From positions 15,634 to 79,633 of the forward strand of contig CAYGZP010000001.1 in assembly GCA_964354405.1 (NCBI GenBank): a stretch of DNA of 64,000 bases, read 5' to 3'. Shown in pieces: positions 879 to 12,813 of the stretch. The position numbers were made by a program, and so were the translations under genes. Below the pieces are notes generated by a model. It made no database searches. It saw nothing but the letters and a program-made list of their open reading frames with translations, and had not been told where the DNA came from. Source of the stretch: Candidatus Woesearchaeota archaeon. GTDB taxonomy: Archaea > Nanobdellota > Nanobdellia > Pacearchaeales > UBA284. Positions within the stretch are counted from its first letter, which is position 1, and each line of letters starts with the position of its first letter.

Positions 879-944
879 AAAAATAAAATTTGTTAGAGAC
901 TTATAAATTTATTTAATTGTTCCAAAACAAAAGTTTCTTATTTA

Positions 945-983
945 TTAACCCCTCCTCAGTGACAAACCGAAAAGCTTATAAAT
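945..983 (+). promoter_or_regulatory. conserved upstream element A, copy 1: TTAACCCCTCCTCAGTGACAAACCGAAA followed by TATA-like AGCTTATAAAT
   Basis: Near-identical 38-nt element also at 3613-3650 and 11754-11792, each 20-40 nt upstream of a + strand start codon. BRE/TATA-like 3' half. Confidence 0.55.
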
Positions 984-1006
984 GTGAATCTCTTTAAAAT
1001 AAAACA

Positions 1007-1510
1007 ATGAAAGATTTAGTTAAGTTAGCAATGGCGATGTTTACGTTACTCTCTTTGTCTTGCTATCAAAAGGTAAAAAACGAAGAGAAATTTAAAGGCT
1101 GGTTTGCTTCAGCTATAATTTATGATTATCTTGGACAGGAAAAAAAGGCATTAGACTGTTTAGATTCTCTTCAAATCCATGCAAGAGAAGGAGAACTTCA
1201 ATTTTATAAACGATTGCCAAAAAAAAGGCTTCTTGAATTGTCCGAATGGGATTCTAGAGCTTGGATAGAGCGTGGAAAAATTTATAGAGAATTGGGGGAT
1301 TGTGAAGGAGCTCTAAAATGTTTTAGAACTGCTATTACTACTTATTTGGGAAATGGTGAAAGGTTTGAAAAGTTATCTGACTTGGATTCTTGGGATCCTA
1401 TAATTGCTTCTCGTATAGAAAGCGCTAAAACCTTTAAGGAAATGGGTGAAGAAAAAAGGGCTAAAAACTTTGGAAAAATTCTTGAAAAATATCTTAAGGC
1501 AAATTACTAA
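1007..1510 (+). CDS. putative lipoprotein with TPR-like helical repeats
   Basis: N-terminal signal with LSLSC lipobox-like cysteine. Helical repeats with W/Y/G/A spacing typical of TPR. Preceded by element A. Confidence 0.4.
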   Translation: MKDLVKLAMAMFTLLSLSCYQKVKNEEKFKGWFASAIIYDYLGQEKKALDCLDSLQIHAREGELQFYKRLPKKRLLELSEWDSRAWIERGKIYRELGDCEGALKCFRTAITTYLGNGERFEKLSDLDSWDPIIASRIESAKTFKEMGEEKRAKNFGKILEKYLKANY

Positions 1511-1525
1511 TCGCTTCGATTGAAC

Positions 1526-2596
1526 TTAAACTTTGATTAATTCTAAAATTCTATCTTTGTCTGTGGTATAAACAATCTCAAAGGCCTTAGCTTTAATAAT
1601 GGTCTCTCCTTTTTCTGCATTATGTTTTATATCAAAATTACCAATACCAAAACTACAGGCAGTTGACAAAGCTTTTAAAGGATAATTTTTACTTTCTGCC
1701 GAAATACAATAACTAGGGTCTGTTGAACAGCAAATGAGTGTCTCGCCTTGCGTCACTAATTTCACTATAGCATTTCTTAATTCTTGACCATCTTTGTACA
1801 ATTTTCCTTTTTCTACTTTAAGTGTCTTTTCTTTGGAGATATATTTTGCAATTGTTCCAACATTAGCAGTATATTGACTTAGCATCTGTTTTCCTGACTG
1901 ATCTGATTTGATAAGATATGCATTAGCTTCACTCCATGTCAGCTTCCTTTCATCTGGTTTAGAAAATTCTAAAGTTATGCCTGAAATTTGTAATTCTGGT
2001 TGAGTGTAAGGCCTCTGAAATCCACCATAATAGTAAGTCGAAATTATGCTGCCGGCATACATTACGTTATCTTTTTCTTCTTTATATCTTGGCACTGATA
2101 TTTTTCCGTTACTTATAATTCCATTCTTATCGAAGAATATGCTTGTTGAAAGATAATTTATTTGTGTTATTTTATCTTCTACCATAAACGAAGCGAGATT
2201 ACCAAGCATCGCAGCTATCCTATCTCCTTGGTCTACGTCCCTCTCTTCAATAAAAGTTTCTTCATATTGTAGAGCTGCTATAACACTGCTTAAAGGAGTC
2301 TGACCAACATAAGCTTCGTATTTTTGCTGCTGTTGATCATATTTAACATTAAAGGCGCCCCTAAGTTCTCCTTCATCATAAGTTAATCCATAAGTACTTA
2401 AATGATTTTGAACATTTTCTCGAGGAGTAAAGCAAAAGATAAGATGAAATGTGCCAATCTCGTCTTTCCATAAGTGTGCATATTTATTAGGGTCTTGAGT
2501 TGGAGCGCATCCAAAAATAGCTGTCGCAGAAGATGTTAGAAAAATACTTATTAAAATAAACAAGATAAACAACATAAACAGCACATATTTTCTCAT
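1526..2596 (-). CDS. secreted hypothetical protein
   Basis: 356 aa. N-terminal signal peptide MRKYVLFMLFILFILISIFLTSSATA. No recognisable domain. Upstream region is repeat C copy 1. Confidence 0.45.
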   Translation of the reverse strand: MRKYVLFMLFILFILISIFLTSSATAIFGCAPTQDPNKYAHLWKDEIGTFHLIFCFTPRENVQNHLSTYGLTYDEGELRGAFNVKYDQQQQKYEAYVGQTPLSSVIAALQYEETFIEERDVDQGDRIAAMLGNLASFMVEDKITQINYLSTSIFFDKNGIISNGKISVPRYKEEKDNVMYAGSIISTYYYGGFQRPYTQPELQISGITLEFSKPDERKLTWSEANAYLIKSDQSGKQMLSQYTANVGTIAKYISKEKTLKVEKGKLYKDGQELRNAIVKLVTQGETLICCSTDPSYCISAESKNYPLKALSTACSFGIGNFDIKHNAEKGETIIKAKAFEIVYTTDKDRILELIKV

Positions 2597-2654
2597 AATA
2601 AAATAAAACTTTTAAACTTTTTAAATTTATCTCGGTTTCGCAACTGTTCACTCA

Positions 2655-2772
2655 ACCACGACAAGCTTAATCCAGTATAACAATCTTCTTTAGTTTCAAC
2701 TGAAACAACCGATAACTTTGTATGCCAATTGATAGCTTATATTATCAAATGATAGAAAACATTCACTCAACC
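2655..2772. repeat. intergenic repeat C, copy 1 (about 120 nt, roughly 75-80% identical to 5347-5465) containing inverted repeat TTGATAGCTTATATTATCAA at 2729-2748
   Basis: Direct comparison of the two intergenic regions; both lie 50-170 nt upstream of minus-strand secreted-protein genes. Confidence 0.6.
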
Positions 2773-2810
2773 TTCATTCTTTTATCATTCAAGCAATAAT
2801 TCTTAGAACT

Positions 2811-3185
2811 CTAAGTATTGACAACAAGTTCTTTTTCAAAAATCTCATTAGCTTTTTTAGCAATAGTCCACTGCAATCTAAGCATCTGCCTTACTATTGG
2901 ATTTTTTTCATTAAGTTTAAACATTCTAGCCTTGCCAACCTTTCTTGTTTCAATTACAAGCCCTGCCTTAACAAACTCCGGCCAAAACGACATTAAACTC
3001 GTATAGCTTACTTCAGAGTTTTTTGCTATATCTGTTAAACTGTAATCGAAAGCTTGAAACGTAAGCAAAAAATCTAAAACTCTTAATTTTGGACTGTGCC
3101 CTACAACTTTTAAAAATATTGATTCTGACATATTATTTGCAAGAAATTGATATTTATAAATCCTTCTATTTTTAAACAATATCAT
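2811..3185 (-). CDS. putative winged-helix DNA-binding protein
   Basis: 124 aa, small basic alpha/beta protein with an HTH-like segment (SLTDIAKNSEVSYTSLMSFW). TATA-like CTTATAAATTTT about 40 nt upstream of the 3185 start. Confidence 0.35.
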   Translation of the reverse strand: MILFKNRRIYKYQFLANNMSESIFLKVVGHSPKLRVLDFLLTFQAFDYSLTDIAKNSEVSYTSLMSFWPEFVKAGLVIETRKVGKARMFKLNEKNPIVRQMLRLQWTIAKKANEIFEKELVVNT

Positions 3186-3246
3186 ACAAAAATGAAAACT
3201 TTCTTTTTTAAGAAAATTTATAAGTGTATTTCATCTTTATATTTTT

Positions 3247-3513
3247 ATGAAAGAAGAGGAGATCATTGCTACTTTATTAAAAAAACTGTATTTGGCTGGA
3301 AAAATAGGCCATAGCCATACTCCTTTTGAGAACTTGCCAAAGGGATTTCCCTCAAATATTGGGAAAGAAGTAAAGCAAATAGCAAAAATGCTTGCAAGGA
3401 AAGGCATATTAATTTTAAGTAAGCACAACTATGGCATTGGCGTTTCATTAAATCATAAAAGATTACAAGAAATAAAAGTAATTATTGAAAAAGTTTTTCC
3501 AAATATAGTTTAA
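3247..3513 (+). CDS. hypothetical small protein
   Basis: 88-aa ORF, no recognisable family. Confidence 0.25.
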   Translation: MKEEEIIATLLKKLYLAGKIGHSHTPFENLPKGFPSNIGKEVKQIAKMLARKGILILSKHNYGIGVSLNHKRLQEIKVIIEKVFPNIV

Positions 3514-3534
3514 TAAAATTATTGACTCCTCACT

Positions 3535-3612
3535 TCATCAAAACAGCCTTCTCCGGTTTCAATAATTCTTTAGAATCTTTTGGCTTTAGAAAAACAAAGT
3601 AAGTTATAAGTA
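3535..3612 (-). pseudogene. decayed fragment of a T9SS-like C-terminal sorting domain (repeat B), directly abutting element A copy 2
   Basis: Minus-strand translation gives ...GVNTYNLL.. and ..RIIETGEGCFDEV. Nucleotide-level similar to the 6519-6685 fragment and to the C-terminus of the 11821..12813 product. Stop codons and frameshift are present. Confidence 0.4.
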
Positions 3613-3650
3613 TTAACCCCTCGTCAGTGACAAACCGAAACCTTTAAATA
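3613..3650 (+). promoter_or_regulatory. conserved upstream element A, copy 2
   Basis: TTAACCCCTCGTCAGTGACAAACCGAAACCTTTAAATA, 22 nt upstream of the 3672 start. Confidence 0.55.
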
Positions 3651-3671
3651 TCTTAAACCATTATAAACATA

Positions 3672-4172
3672 ATGAAAAACTTAGAAAACAAACTTGGCTT
3701 CGGAGCAACTATTTTTAGTTTAATCTTAGCTCTATCTACAGCACTTTCTTGCGATAAAAAAGAAAAGGGTTTTGCTTATGTAAGTGAAGGCCCCCCATCT
3801 AAAGAAAAAACAGAAAATCCTGCTGAAATTTATATCAAAAAAGCTTTGAACTTTAAAGAGCAGGGGCAGCTTGACAGCGCCTTAGTTTATTCTACAAAAG
3901 CAATAAATAATCAAAGAATATTAGAAAGTGAGCAGGTAGGAAACATGCATTATCTTAGAGCCCAAATACACCAATATTTTAGTAGAAATAAAGAAGCCAT
4001 CGAAGATTATGAAGATGCAATTTACTGTTATTCTAGTAAGATGATGACAAAAGAATGTATTCCAATATATCTTGAAATGACAGAACTTCATGAAAAATTA
4101 GGCGATAAAGAAAAGGCAGAGGAATGTAAAAGATTAGCTGAAAGATTTGAAGAATACCGCAGAACACATTAA
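3672..4172 (+). CDS. putative lipoprotein with TPR-like repeats
   Basis: 166 aa; signal plus ALSC lipobox-like Cys. Helical repeat content. Same size and architecture as the 1007..1510 product. Confidence 0.4.
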   Translation: MKNLENKLGFGATIFSLILALSTALSCDKKEKGFAYVSEGPPSKEKTENPAEIYIKKALNFKEQGQLDSALVYSTKAINNQRILESEQVGNMHYLRAQIHQYFSRNKEAIEDYEDAIYCYSSKMMTKECIPIYLEMTELHEKLGDKEKAEECKRLAERFEEYRRTH

Positions 4173-4176
4173 TTCT

Positions 4177-5301
4177 CTAACCTCTTAATATTTCCATTAT
4201 TTTTATCAGTTCTTCCTCATTCGAAGGCTTTAAAATCTTAACATTCTTCGTTTGAATTTCAGTTGTGATACCAATTTCTTTTTCTCCTTCAGCAATAATT
4301 TTAAATTCACATTCTTCTGCTAAAGAATATTGCAACTTTCCATCAATTTCACCATAACAAAAAAGATATTCATTTTCTGCTTCACTAACTAAAAATGCTA
4401 AATTCTTACTCCTTAAATCAAAATAAGAAGAATAAAGAAAACGCTTGATTAGAGGAATCTTGACTCCTGCAACTATAGCGCCACTGCTATTTTTCTTAAT
4501 CAAAAAAGAGTTGTAAATCCAAGTATAATTAAACATCCCACTAATTCTTGTGAAATCTCTGATATTTAAAGCAAAATCTGAGCTTTGGTCTATAAAATAA
4601 GTTACATATGAACAAAAATCATCGCCAGGAAGATAGCAATAAATCTTTACCTTAGTATTTGGGGCATCCAACCAAAATGAGCCTAATTTATCATAAGTAT
4701 AACTTATTTTCATATCTTCTTCATAGGGTTCATCAAAAGCCTCATAAAAATACCATGCTTTTGTCTTTTCATCATGAATGCTATAGCTTCCCTTATTATA
4801 AACATAAATTTTCCTTTCGGTAAAATTAATTAAAGCCCTCTCGACCCGAATTTCCCAAGATGCTCTTTTGGCAACAATATCTCCAATTGAACTATCTTTA
4901 AACATAATCACTCCACTAACAATTCTTCCACTTTCATCAAGAGATAAATTTTCAATAATTCTGGCTCTTTGCCATTGCATCTCACGAAACAAAGAATCAG
5001 TTGTGTTAAAAATTCCTCGCATTTGTCTTTCATATTGTGGGAGTTCCTTGACTAAGTCGCTTATTTCTTCTTCTGAGAGCTCTCTCTTAATGATTATTTC
5101 AAACCAATAAGTACTTGTTTCGCCTGCTTCAATGAATTCATGATCTAAATCTTTAGCAATTAGATAAGTAAAAATCGCCCTGCCAGGAACATTGTTTACT
5201 AGCCTTATTGGAAGTGTTTGATCCTCTGCAATAACATTAGAAAACAATAAAATAAATGTTAATAATAACAAAATAGACAGTATTGGTTTTTTCAATTTCA
5301 T
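4177..5301 (-). CDS. secreted hypothetical protein
   Basis: 374 aa; signal peptide MKLKKPILSILLLLTFILLFSNVIA. Repeat C copy 2 lies upstream. Confidence 0.45.
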   Translation of the reverse strand: MKLKKPILSILLLLTFILLFSNVIAEDQTLPIRLVNNVPGRAIFTYLIAKDLDHEFIEAGETSTYWFEIIIKRELSEEEISDLVKELPQYERQMRGIFNTTDSLFREMQWQRARIIENLSLDESGRIVSGVIMFKDSSIGDIVAKRASWEIRVERALINFTERKIYVYNKGSYSIHDEKTKAWYFYEAFDEPYEEDMKISYTYDKLGSFWLDAPNTKVKIYCYLPGDDFCSYVTYFIDQSSDFALNIRDFTRISGMFNYTWIYNSFLIKKNSSGAIVAGVKIPLIKRFLYSSYFDLRSKNLAFLVSEAENEYLFCYGEIDGKLQYSLAEECEFKIIAEGEKEIGITTEIQTKNVKILKPSNEEELIKIMEILRG

Positions 5302-5346
5302 ACGAAAAGAAAATGTCGCGACCTTTTATAATTTATCTTTTATTTA

Positions 5347-5465
5347 ATCACGACAAACTTAATCTATTATAACAACTTTCTCCGACTTCAATCTAAACAA
5401 CTGAAAACTTTATCTCTCAATTGATAACTTATATTATCAACTGATAGAAAACATCCATTCACAAC
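5347..5465. repeat. intergenic repeat C, copy 2, with inverted repeat TTGATAACTTATATTATCAA at 5421-5440
   Basis: Aligns with 2655-2772 (cacgacaa.cttaatc...aactgaaa...caattgata.cttatattatcaa.tgatagaaaacat). Followed at 5500-5560 by a short repeat-B-like segment and a TATA (GATTTATAAAC) for gene 5586. Confidence 0.6.
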
Positions 5466-5585
5466 AGATTATCTCGTCTTCACAACTTTTTTTGTTGGCA
5501 ACCCAGCTTCTTCTGGCTTTATGAAATAAACTCTTAAAGAGAAAAAACGAAAGATTTATAAACAATTGTTAAATAATATTAACAT

Positions 5586-6095
5586 ATGTTAAAAATAATT
5601 AACGATTTAATGGTTTTTTTTGAAGATTGCTATAGAGAAATTAATGTAAGAGAATACGCCAAAATTAAAAAAATATCACCACCCACCGCCTCTAAACTAT
5701 TATCTTATTATTACTCTGAAAAGTTTTTAATGAAAAGAAAATATAAGAATTTACTTTTATTTTCAGCAAACAATCAAAATAAGCACTTTATTGATTTATC
5801 TAGAATATATTGGTCTGAAAGAATGAAAGAATTAATTGAATTCATAGAAAAAAGACTTATTTCTCTAACAATAATATTATTTGGCTCTCTTTCAAAAGCT
5901 GAAGTTAAATTAGATTCGGATATTGATCTGGCCATATTTGCGCATAAAAAAGAATTAAATATAGAAAGTTTTGAAAGAAAGTTCAAACGAAAAATAAGAA
6001 TATTTTGGTTTAAATCAGTAAAAGATATTAAAAGTAAAGAGCTCGCAAATAACATAGTCAATGGATATGTTTTAAAAGGGAGAATATTATTATAA
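5586..6095 (+). CDS. minimal nucleotidyltransferase (MNT) with N-terminal HTH-like region
   Basis: GSLSKAEVKLDSDIDLAIF matches the GS-x(9-13)-DxD polymerase-beta-type NTase motif. 169 aa. Confidence 0.55.
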   Translation: MLKIINDLMVFFEDCYREINVREYAKIKKISPPTASKLLSYYYSEKFLMKRKYKNLLLFSANNQNKHFIDLSRIYWSERMKELIEFIEKRLISLTIILFGSLSKAEVKLDSDIDLAIFAHKKELNIESFERKFKRKIRIFWFKSVKDIKSKELANNIVNGYVLKGRILL

Positions 6096-6097
6096 AA

Positions 6098-6511
6098 ATG
6101 AACTGGAGAGAATGCTGTAATAAAAGGATAGTAAAGAATGTAAACCCTGATTTAGATATGACAATCTCTCTAATCAAAAGTAGCGAGAATAAATTGAAAT
6201 CTGAAGAAAAACTTGTTATGAGCGCAGTAACTGCGAGTTCAAAAATTTCTCTTGTTTATGATTCATTGAGAGAACTTTTAGAAGCATTGGCTTTAAAAGA
6301 AGGATACAAAATTTATAATCATGAATGTTACACTGCTTTCATTAAAGAGATTATAAAAGAAAGTGACAGAGGAGACGAATTTGATGAAATAAGAAAGATA
6401 AGAAATGATGTGAATTATTATGGAAAAGAAATATCTGTAGAAGAGGCTGAAAATGTTATTAATAGAATAAAAAACCTAAGAGTTTCTATATCAAAATTAT
6501 TAAAAAAATAA
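6098..6511 (+). CDS. HEPN-like all-alpha protein, partner of the upstream MNT
   Basis: Start is 3 nt after the MNT stop. All-helical 137 aa. Conserved R..RN motif region (RKIRNDVNYY) lacks the canonical His. Confidence 0.4.
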   Translation: MNWRECCNKRIVKNVNPDLDMTISLIKSSENKLKSEEKLVMSAVTASSKISLVYDSLRELLEALALKEGYKIYNHECYTAFIKEIIKESDRGDEFDEIRKIRNDVNYYGKEISVEEAENVINRIKNLRVSISKLLKK

Positions 6512-6518
6512 CTAACCT

Positions 6519-6685
6519 TTACCTCATCAAAACAACCCTCTCCGGCTTTAGCAATTCTTTGCCATCTTCAGGTTTCAAGAAAACAAAGTAAGCCCCATTA
6601 GCCAAGCCATAAGTATTAATCTTATTGCCTTTTCCTTTATAAGCAATCTTCCCAGAAACGTCATAAAGATAATAATTTATCCTTT
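6519..6685 (-). pseudogene. orphan fragment of a T9SS-like C-terminal sorting domain (no start codon)
   Basis: Minus-strand translation is ERINYYLYDVSGKIAYKGKGNKINTYGLANGAYFVFLKPEDGKELLKPERVVLMR*. It has no Met and a stop lies upstream. Matches the LYDASGRKI...NGVYFV...KLTLLK tail of 11821..12813. Confidence 0.5.
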
Positions 6686-6795: not shown

Positions 6796-7896
6796 ATGAA
6801 AAAAGAGTTCATGGATCCTTGGGGGGATACTTTATTAGATTATGAAAAAGCTGCAAAAAAATTTGGTATTCAACCTATTTCTGAAGAAATGAAAAAATTC
6901 TTTAAAAATAATAGATTTTTTTCTAGAAATATTATAATGGCACATAGGGATTTTGACAAAGTTTTTGAAAGAATAAAATCAAAAGAGCCCTTTATTCAAA
7001 TGACTGGAATAGCTTCTTCTGGAAAATTTCATTTTGGTCATAAAATGATAGTAGATTTATTTCTTTCTTTCAAGGAATACAATTCAAAAAATTATTTTGG
7101 AATTTGTGATATTGATGGATATGTTAGTAGGCCAGATTTTAAAGTGCCCTCTTTAGAAAAAGCAAAAGAATATGCTATTAATAATTTAGCTCATGTTCTT
7201 GCATTAGGATTAAATGAAAAAGATGTTTTTGTTCAAAGTAAAAAAGAACAAAGATACTATGAATTTGCTTTTGAATTAAGTAAAAAGATTACTGGAAATA
7301 TGTTTAAAGCAGTTTATGGTCATTTAGATTTAGGAAAAATTTCTGCTAATTTATTGCAATATGCAGATATTTTACATCCACAATTAAAAGAATATGAAGA
7401 TAGAATGCCAAGTATTACAGCGATAGGATTAGAACAAGATCCGCATATAAGAGTAACAAGGGATATTGCAAAAAGATTGCCTTATAATCTTGAATTGCCA
7501 AGCTCACTTTACATTATTTACCAAGGGGGTTTATTAGCTAATAAAAAAATGTCATCGTCACAACCAGAAACTGCTATTTTTCTCGATGATAGTGAAGAAG
7601 AAGCAGCAAAAAAATTAAGAAATTCATTTACAGGGGGGCGAGAAAACATAGAAAAACAAAAAGAACTTGGAGGACAACCCCCAATATGTAGAATTTTTGA
7701 AATATATAGATTCCATCATCCTAATGATGATTTTGTTAAAGAAATAGAAAAAAATTGTAAAGCAGGAAAATTAATGTGTAAAGATTGTAAAAAACAATGT
7801 ATAGATTTTATAATTTCATTTTTAAAAAATCACCAGAAAAAACTTGTAAAAACCAAGAAAATTGCTGAGAAGATGGTATTGAAAGATGATAAATAA
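6796..7896 (+). CDS. trpS: tryptophanyl-tRNA synthetase, archaeal/eukaryotic type
   Basis: Class I aaRS with HIGH-like GKFHFGH and KMSSS. Strong similarity to eukaryotic TrpRS blocks (EQDPHIRVTRDIAKRLPY; SFTGGRENIEKQKELGGQP). Cys-rich C-terminal tail. Confidence 0.75.
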   Translation: MKKEFMDPWGDTLLDYEKAAKKFGIQPISEEMKKFFKNNRFFSRNIIMAHRDFDKVFERIKSKEPFIQMTGIASSGKFHFGHKMIVDLFLSFKEYNSKNYFGICDIDGYVSRPDFKVPSLEKAKEYAINNLAHVLALGLNEKDVFVQSKKEQRYYEFAFELSKKITGNMFKAVYGHLDLGKISANLLQYADILHPQLKEYEDRMPSITAIGLEQDPHIRVTRDIAKRLPYNLELPSSLYIIYQGGLLANKKMSSSQPETAIFLDDSEEEAAKKLRNSFTGGRENIEKQKELGGQPPICRIFEIYRFHHPNDDFVKEIEKNCKAGKLMCKDCKKQCIDFIISFLKNHQKKLVKTKKIAEKMVLKDDK

Positions 7897-11703: not shown

Positions 11704-11753
11704 ATTTTTTAAAATGACCTTTATTTTAAATATCTTTCTCGAATAGCGGCTTA

Positions 11754-11792
11754 TTAACCCCTCGTCAGTGACAAACCAAAAAGTTTAAATAT
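11754..11792 (+). promoter_or_regulatory. conserved upstream element A, copy 3
   Basis: TTAACCCCTCGTCAGTGACAAACCAAAAAGTTTAAATAT, about 30 nt upstream of the 11821 start. Confidence 0.55.
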
Positions 11793-11820
11793 CTCTTTAT
11801 CTTATAAATCATATCGAAAA

Positions 11821-12813
11821 ATGTCAAATATAATCACATTAGCCCAACTCATAGCCCAACTTCTAAACACAAATCCCCAAGACATGAAGAACACACAATT
11901 CATTCCTCTCAATCCAGTCCAATATGTCATGATAGATGAAAAAAAAGAAGAAAAAATAAGTCCAAGTCTTGCTGCGCCCATGTTTCATGGAAGGGTATGG
12001 AGAGATTTATATGGGGCTGGTGCAGATAGTGCAGATGTAATCATAACAAATAAAAATGGGATTGATACAGTTATGGCAAGAGTTGGAAGGACAGGGACAA
12101 CCAGTTATTACAGTAGAACTGTTCCAGATGGCTGGGGTTTAGTAATAGGAGATATAGTAATAATAAAAGCAAAAGATATTGATGGTGACAGTGCAAAAAC
12201 ATGGAGAAATGTTACAAGTGCAACCGGAGCAAATCTAGTTATTGACTTGTTCACAGAAAATGTATATAATACTCATAAAGGACACTCATTACTTATCAAA
12301 GCAGTTAAGGATGACTTAATTGATAGTGTTGATGCAAAGTGTTGGGTTAAAGGAAAACCAGATACATTGCAAGATAGATTCAGAAGGAATACTTCATTCT
12401 ATAACATTGCTTTCAACGCAGAAAACTTCCCAACAGCTTCAAGGCCAACTTTGGGAGACAGCATTTTTTTCAAGATGACTACAGGTACTTATGCAGCAGA
12501 ATCAAAAGGACTTTATTTAAATCAGTTTATCGACGGTGATACATTCCCTTCATGCTCATTAAGATTACTTGGCGTAACAGAAGAACAATTAGAAAGAAAA
12601 TTAAGAGATAATAGACTTATCATAACACCAAACCCTTCAAAAGGAATGATTGTCTTGCCATCTCAATTCAAAGGATTCTTGTATGATGCTTCAGGAAGAA
12701 AAATTATGGATATAAAAAATGAAAAACTTGATTTGAGAAATTACTCAAACGGAGTTTACTTCGTGACAGACATTGATAACAAACAAAGAGGAAAATTAAC
12801 TTTACTCAAGTAA
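11821..12813 (+). CDS. hypothetical protein with T9SS-type (Por_Secre_tail-like) C-terminal domain
   Basis: C-terminal 65 aa, ITPNPSKGMIVLPSQFKGFLYDASGRKIMDIKNEKLDLRNYSNGVYFVTDIDNKQRGKLTLLK, matches the consensus of bacterial type IX secretion C-terminal sorting domains. No obvious N-terminal signal peptide. Confidence 0.45.
   Translation: MSNIITLAQLIAQLLNTNPQDMKNTQFIPLNPVQYVMIDEKKEEKISPSLAAPMFHGRVWRDLYGAGADSADVIITNKNGIDTVMARVGRTGTTSYYSRTVPDGWGLVIGDIVIIKAKDIDGDSAKTWRNVTSATGANLVIDLFTENVYNTHKGHSLLIKAVKDDLIDSVDAKCWVKGKPDTLQDRFRRNTSFYNIAFNAENFPTASRPTLGDSIFFKMTTGTYAAESKGLYLNQFIDGDTFPSCSLRLLGVTEEQLERKLRDNRLIITPNPSKGMIVLPSQFKGFLYDASGRKIMDIKNEKLDLRNYSNGVYFVTDIDNKQRGKLTLLK

Follow-up and report, generated by a model that had tools for sequence, protein, structure and literature searches.

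The repeat and the secreted-protein genes

We analysed a 64-kb stretch of DNA, referred to in its whole length as the window, which is AT-rich (36.7% GC) and comes from a DPANN (Woesearchaeota-like) archaeon. Two genes on the minus strand, at 1526-2596 and 4177-5301, encode proteins with signal peptides (secreted proteins A and B) and, as the initial annotation had described, a repeat of about 120 nt is located upstream of each of them. The features of this part of the locus are:

2647-2772, no strand: repeat copy A (D1-A), a probable composite remnant with 78% ungapped identity to 5339-5461
5339-5465, no strand: repeat copy B (D1-B), aligned with copy A
2621-2637, minus strand: predicted TATA box (2621-2630) and BRE (2630-2637; AACCGAGA) of secreted gene A, from sequence and leaderless geometry
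5324-5335, minus strand: predicted TATA box of secreted gene B, from sequence and conservation with the TATA box at copy A

The two copies could be aligned without gaps (2647-2769 against 5339-5461) at 78% identity with a blastn E value of 6e-27, and the repeat, previously put at 75-80% identity, is therefore real. The perfect 6-bp inverted repeat noted within it was likewise found, TTGATA-N8-TATCAA being exact at 2729-2748 in copy A and at 5421-5440 in copy B, where 0.68 sites per window with no more than one mismatch would be expected by chance. The palindrome had also been placed at the same distance from both start codons; this is incorrect, as the gap is 132 nt in copy A and 119 nt in copy B. 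The difference arises because of a 14-nt indel (in the 2634-2647 region, present in A only) that separates the repeat from the TATA boxes of the secreted-protein genes, and beyond the indel the similarity of the two copies resumes into the TATA region (approximately 2617-2633 against 5322-5338). An nhmmer profile built from both copies recovered only these two, with no third copy in the 64 kb.

Promoters in the window are of the archaeal type, in which a BRE (for example CCGAAA) directly adjoins the 5' side of a TATA box whose end is approximately 23-25 nt before the ATG. The geometry of the predicted BRE and TATA box of secreted gene A agrees with that of the other leaderless promoters in the window, and the stretch that contains them (2597-2665) is 66/68 identical in a sister strain. 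Secreted proteins A and B showed no significant similarity to each other (BLASTP E 0.096; hhalign 45% probability over 43 columns) and their homolog sets did not overlap. Neither protein matched a Pfam or NCBIfam family, and a look-up of protein A returned no exact record.

In the sister strain the ortholog of secreted gene A (92% nucleotide identity) keeps the promoter up to the position of 2665 and has no palindrome, and the palindrome is also absent from the ortholog of secreted gene B. The repeat and the D2 block (a second repeat family, listed below) are both absent beside orthologs of secreted gene A at 65%, 49% and 43% identity; these orthologs have kept the convergent TPR lipoprotein gene and are the second genes of an operon.

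The right half and the wHTH-MNT/HEPN family

When metagenomes were scanned with the palindrome plus TGATAG as the pattern, 106 stretches were returned, and in approximately 11 of these the resemblance to the repeat reached well past the pattern. About 70 of the 106 were unrelated matches, including longer palindromes from gut and other samples, and a scan of a genome collection with a 23-base pattern gave a single match, a coding-region coincidence in a Nitrosocosmicus MAG. At the related metagenome loci the plus strand of the repeat corresponds to AACCGATAGTTTTAAATACCAA-TTGATA-N8-TATCAA-ATGATAGAAAAATCTACC, and the ATG directly after TATCAA opens a 172-aa ORF starting MIEKST (codons ATGATAGAAAAATCTACC), whose end is overlapped by a gene for a protein of 139-140 aa. 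Since these first loci had been picked by a DNA pattern, further loci were fetched via the protein. Five distinct promoters anchored by protein in this way shared the same BRE-TATA-dyad-ATG layout, with the dyad varying as TTGATA/TTGGTA/TTGGGA, N8 and TATCAA/TACCAA, and the order of elements in the family is BRE, TATA, TTGrkA-N8-TAyCAA and then the ATG with no leader. An HMM of the five promoters matched the plus strand at 2706-2759 (E 2e-6) and at 5399-5451 (E 7e-3), and these were the only matches below E 0.01 in the 64 kb. The right half of each copy can be divided as follows:

2707-2728, plus strand: copy A, BRE-like AACCGATA (2707-2714) and decayed TATA box CTTTGTATG (2716-2724), from family alignment and HMM; the region aligns with AACCGATAG-TTTTAAATA-CCAA of the family
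2729-2748, plus strand: copy A, palindrome and putative operator, exact and in the same place as the dyad between TATA box and ATG in the family
2749-2799, plus strand: copy A, ATG and 16-codon stub (MIENIHSTFILLSFKQ and stop), a probable remnant of the 5' end of a wHTH-MNT gene
5399-5443, plus strand: copy B, BRE-like AACTGAAA, decayed TATA box CTTTATCTC, palindrome (5421-5440) and CTG (5441-5443), from HMM and alignment

The right half of each copy is thus most likely, on the strength of this alignment, the promoter and first eight or so codons of a wHTH-MNT/HEPN cassette.

The 172-aa protein belongs to a family of 386 members. Among the best 120 of these, which are 62-97% identical, those that are named come nearly all from Woesearchaeota or Nanoarchaeota. 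Its Pfam match is Polbeta/NTP_transf_2; MntA_antitoxin is the best match in NCBIfam and the closest PDB sequences are MntA, all below the family cut-offs. The 139-140-aa partner matches Pfam HEPN, so that in the relatives a gene for an MNT-fold nucleotidyltransferase is found immediately 5' of a HEPN gene. An AlphaFold2 model of the 172-aa protein (pLDDT 92.4) has an N-terminal winged helix of H-beta-H-H-beta-beta order followed by an MNT fold, and Foldseek matched one half of the model to MNT antitoxins and the other to DNA binders of the MarR/ArsR/TrmBL2/BldR type. A DNA-binding winged helix in the antitoxin is therefore predicted with high confidence.

The window also encodes a pair of this kind:

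5547-5585, plus strand: apparently working promoter, from alignment, with BRE ACGAAAG, TATA box ATTTATAAA and dyad TGTTAA-N6-TTAACA before the ATG
5586-6095, plus strand: intact wHTH-MNT gene, matching Pfam Polbeta/NTP_transf_2
6098-6511, plus strand: HEPN-like partner, sharing 34% identity (E 1e-15) with a partner from the family that has a Pfam HEPN match

The wHTH-MNT protein of the window is 28-36% identical to the 172-aa family and matches MntA_antitoxin below the curated cut-off; no other gene of the family was found in the window by tblastn. In an alignment the promoter of the window's gene corresponds column by column to the repeat and the family promoters, although the dyad differs. 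Across the window and family sequences the dyad is symmetric throughout, with the fourth pair varying as A-T, G-T, G-C or T-A. A wHTH/MNT-type gene at position 6957 of the metagenome locus L119 has AGTAT-N9-ATACT between TATA box and ATG, and the differing half-sites at this locus and at 5547-5585 of the window would fit operators that diverge alongside their repressors.

As the family dyad lies between the TATA box and the start of the transcript, it is in the position of a repressor operator, and since the family TATA box ends 24 nt before the ATG, transcription is predicted to start at or within a few nt of the ATG to give a leaderless mRNA. From this arrangement we infer that a dimer of the N-terminal winged-helix domain of the antitoxin would occupy the dyad and block TBP, TFB and RNA polymerase, so repressing the antitoxin's own operon. 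The palindrome is best read as the putative autoregulatory operator of the cassette, on the plus strand and directed away from the secreted-protein genes. The earlier proposal of an operator for a dimeric regulator accordingly keeps the kind of element, but the gene and strand to which it was assigned have to be exchanged for the wHTH-MNT/HEPN cassette and the plus strand.

The first six codons, ATGATAGAAAAATCTACC, are near-invariant in nucleotides, including at synonymous sites, at loci L008, L011, L081, L115, L118, L119, L122, L123 and others (two loci have TCA for TCT), and the proteins behind this start are only 62-97% identical. Such invariance suggests a constraint, which could come from the leaderless mRNA, at its 5' end, or from the footprint of the repressor. 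The HEPN partners of the window (6098-6511), L011 (2223-2645) and L081 (4248-4667) have R(K/R)IRNxxxYYG at the site of the canonical Rx4-6H RNase motif, where a tyrosine replaces the histidine. In view of the missing histidine the activity of the partner is uncertain, and the HEPN 'toxin' may be inactive or act differently.

Exclusion of the transcription machinery is the usual mode of repression in archaea, and the operators of archaeal repressors lie over or just downstream of the TATA box, for example in repression of the MDR1, LrpA, Phr and TrmB type. The family resembles these in having a dyad between TATA box and start and a predicted winged-helix dimer, and differs in that the putative regulator is a fusion to an antitoxin-type enzyme. 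A second point of comparison is the Shewanella oneidensis operon SO_3165/SO_3166 (MntA/HepT, type II/VII), in which the MNT gene is also 5' of, and overlaps, the HEPN gene and a palindrome is also found within the operon's own promoter. The Shewanella MNT antitoxin binds its own promoter, which contains palindromes, and has no predicted DNA-binding domain (PMC4621449). In contrast, the family MNT protein has a fused N-terminal winged helix, its promoter has an archaeal BRE and TATA box and a predicted leaderless start, its HEPN partner has RNxxxYY where Rx4-6H would be expected, and the repeat copies in the window are truncated remnants without genes.

The left half and the history of the locus

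The left half of each copy looks like the leftover last codons and stops of genes whose secreted products have a C-terminal sorting domain:

2648-2714, minus strand: copy A, two stacked 3' remnants of putative sorting-domain (CTD) genes, from translation
5340-5406, minus strand: copy B, the same two remnants, SFQLFRLKSEKVVIID and stop followed by KFVVIK and stop, from translation

In copy A the minus strand reads SYRLFQLKLKKIVILD up to a stop at 2667-2669, and then at once KLVVVE in another frame up to a stop at 2648-2650. Contigs of the sister strain are 92% identical in nucleotides to 969-2664 of the window and diverge after approximately 2665. Past this point the sister strain has an intact sorting-domain gene that ends in LKAGIYFGVVEGSRKKFVVVE, with its stop at the window's 2648-2650, and the left half is colinear with this gene end. 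In the sister strain an intact gene end, GIYFGVVEGSRKKFVVVE and stop, precedes both secreted-protein genes: the ortholog of secreted gene B (72% nucleotide identity) is preceded by a gene for a 321-aa protein with the same tail, ending in KKFVVVE and stop, and the two tails are approximately 95% identical in DNA. In the window, the repeat holds the spot of the sister strain's sorting-domain gene, and its left end would have kept the last codons and the stop. A point against reading the copies as composites is that this assignment of the left half relies on short peptides; the 24-aa and 28-aa queries gave no Pfam match.

The repeat is accompanied by two further repeat families:

942-1004, 3610-3672 and 11751-11821: D2, second repeat family, a promoter block of 60-70 nt with TTATTAACCCCTCnTCAGTGACAAACC(G/A)AAA and then a TATA box
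3510-3603 and 6500-6680, minus strand: R3, third repeat, 75% identical between copies, a sorting-domain remnant

The minus strand of R3 encodes the C-terminal part of a Por_Secre_tail-like sorting domain (ending in GAYFVFLKPEDGKELLKPERVVLMR and stop; Por_Secre_tail PF18962, E 0.0026, below the curated cut-off) and, as no gene body is attached to it, it is taken to be a gene remnant. Two TPR lipoprotein genes and a 330-aa sorting-domain gene have D2 in front of them, as does the TPR gene in the sister-strain contigs L126/L127 (E 5e-5); the conserved part of D2 that lies upstream of the BRE could act as a regulatory site common to cell-surface genes.

It can be seen that the non-coding blocks D2, repeat and R3 are colinear in two tandem units, at approximately 942-3604 and 3610-6595, with D2 at 943-1004 and 3611-3672 and R3 at 3510-3603 and 6500-6592. 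Each unit has the order D2, TPR gene (plus strand), secreted-protein gene (minus strand), repeat, two-gene module and R3, the module being an ArnR-like wHTH gene with an 88-aa gene in unit 1 and the wHTH-MNT gene with the HEPN gene in unit 2. The coding parts of the two units are unrelated or only remotely related. For the ArnR-like gene, a minus-strand ORF of 124 aa (2811-3185), translation most likely begins at an internal Met to give a protein of 106 aa (2811-3131); the end of a TATA box (TTTATAAATA) is found 21 nt upstream of this ATG, and the public annotation has the same start. At L081 an ArnR-like wHTH gene is divergent from a 98-aa gene (88 aa in the window) and lies near a wHTH-MNT/HEPN cassette. 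The ArnR-like protein was considered as a binder of the palindrome and rejected, as there is only a TATCAA half-site in its own promoter and the promoter of the L081 ortholog shows nothing comparable.

Comparison of 969-5270 with the sister-strain contigs L112/L113 and L126/L127 gave 92% identity across secreted gene A and its TPR gene and 72% across secreted gene B and its TPR gene, with different neighbours, and to judge by their sequences the surface-protein region is a recombination mosaic between strains. The repeat copies share 78% identity, whereas the proteins beside them are unrelated or at most remotely related. This counts against reading the copies as composite remnants, since a further event (ectopic recombination or gene conversion, for example) has to be invoked. 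In the simplest history the three-part junction of sorting-domain tail, second tail and cassette promoter would have arisen once and would then have been copied to the paralogous locus by ectopic recombination. In many respects the copies are like the gene remnants found at recombination junctions in variable surface-protein loci: truncated ends keep their stops or starts with no coding constraint, the arrangement differs in the sister strain and sorting-domain remnants lie nearby. They differ from such remnants in that the same three-part junction is present twice, at 78% identity and beside unrelated genes, with the dyad untouched.

We conclude that each copy is probably (at a probability of about 0.6) a patchwork of leftover gene ends, duplicated a single time in a surface-protein locus that is prone to rearrangement. 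The initial annotation had remarked that conservation over 120 nt exceeds what a simple operator needs. Conservation does extend over the full repeat, but we attribute it to the common descent of a composite remnant and not to a longer functional element.

State of the copies and alternative explanations

Several observations indicate decay of the cassette remnants. At the position of the family TATA box, TTTAAATA, copy A has TTTGTATG and copy B has TTTATCTC, each matching at 5/8 positions. The BRE is intact in copy A and degraded in copy B, and the start codon of the cassette is ATG in copy A and CTG in copy B. Similarity between the copies stops at about codon 8, only approximately the first eight codons (to 2772) being inside the repeat, and in neither copy is an intact antitoxin gene attached to the promoter. 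No coding constraint was detected between the copies, there being no excess of synonymous changes in any of the six frames. Given the truncation, the TATA decay and the loss of the ATG in copy B, the cassette remnants have most likely lost their function or at most act as residual binding sites.

There are nevertheless hints, in the intact dyads and in the conserved block at 2726-2762, that binding may still be under selection. In this block 35/37 positions were kept while the TATA box decayed, that is, 2/37 positions differ between the copies against 28/89 elsewhere (p 0.001, post hoc); when the block was set beforehand by homology to the family the p value for its conservation was 0.056, and identity of all 12 half-site positions at the observed divergence had a p value of 0.04. 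Both dyads could, on this evidence, be orphan operators that still work, bound by a wHTH-MNT antitoxin of the TTGATA type encoded elsewhere in the genome, where a cognate MIEKST-type regulator may be present. They might then modulate the divergent secreted-protein genes, titrate the regulator as a decoy or influence the wHTH-containing gene that adjoins each copy (copy A being antisense to 2811-3131 and copy B upstream of 5586). We consider this unlikely: the statistics are marginal or post hoc, the window, 64 kb of a 420-kb contig, has no cognate family member, and none of the best 120 of the 386 family matches is on that contig. Moreover, the dyad is approximately 100-115 bp from the TATA boxes of the secreted-protein genes with a spacing that differs by about 14 bp between the copies, and it is missing beside the orthologs of the secreted-protein genes, both in the sister strain and at greater distance. 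An extended form of this proposal, in which the orphan dyads are kept as working sites for a wHTH-MNT antitoxin and the non-coding blocks serve as anchors for the swapping of surface genes, seems to us quite improbable.

It is very doubtful that the remnant promoters are still active and drive a short plus-strand transcript. At copy A such a transcript would run antisense to the ArnR-like wHTH gene, and at copy B it would give the MNT/HEPN operon an additional start further upstream. Copy A does retain the BRE-like AACCGATA, and the spacing from dyad to former start is intact in both copies. However, the match of only 5/8 positions to the TATA box TTTAAATA in both copies, the degraded BRE and lost ATG of copy B and the lack of conservation downstream of approximately 2772/5465 all argue against such activity.

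That the repeat is a small, non-autonomous MITE-like element inserted upstream of two genes is highly improbable. In its favour, copy A is bounded by an 11-nt direct repeat, TTCACTCAACC (at 2647-2657 and at 2761-2771), and the sister-strain assemblies break near the position of this copy. Nevertheless, the bracket is not significant, because the window has 39 comparable 11-mer repeat positions, and TTCACTCAACC was therefore ruled out as a target-site duplication; it is only partly kept in copy B, and could instead mark microhomology at a recombination joint. There are, in addition, only two copies, no terminal inverted repeats and no match in viral contigs, and the colinearity of the copies with two other conserved non-coding blocks indicates segmental copying.

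The initial annotation had also raised the possibility of a structured 5' leader or small RNA common to both secreted-protein genes, and had suggested RNA structure prediction and covariation as a check. In the window only tRNAs reached the Rfam gathering score, with nothing at E<=1 in 2500-5700, and folding z-scores for copies A and B were -0.8 and -2.1 on the plus strand and +0.4 and -3.0 on the minus strand, with predicted structures that differ and have only the dyad in common, itself varying at one pair across the family. Although the inverted repeat could form a hairpin, the minus strand of copy B has a z-score of -3.0 and compensatory changes are seen at one dyad position across the family, an RNA is hardly credible, since the predicted BRE and TATA box of the secreted-protein genes lie between the repeat and the start codons, so that the repeat should not be in a leader and the mRNAs would be leaderless, the family dyad is upstream of the predicted transcript start, and orthologs lack the element.

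For annotation of the locus, what appeared to be a regulatory RNA or operator of secreted-protein genes becomes, most likely, duplicated debris that includes a toxin-antitoxin promoter. The repeat adds a fresh case to two known kinds of sequence, gene debris and the autoregulatory promoter of a toxin-antitoxin system. If the dyads were working, expression of fast-evolving surface proteins would be linked to how a toxin-antitoxin module stands, and if the repeat, the D2 promoter block and R3 do act as homology anchors, they would be anchors for the swapping of surface-protein cassettes in DPANN archaea. The locus illustrates how surface-protein neighbourhoods are reshuffled in small genomes, with conserved non-coding blocks left between unrelated genes. 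A wHTH-MNT/HEPN cassette that is very conserved, and whose leaderless BRE-TATA-dyad-ATG promoter has a stereotyped layout, is present in many Woesearchaeota and Nanoarchaeota, and this cassette offers a concrete candidate operator-repressor pair in a group with almost no characterised regulators.
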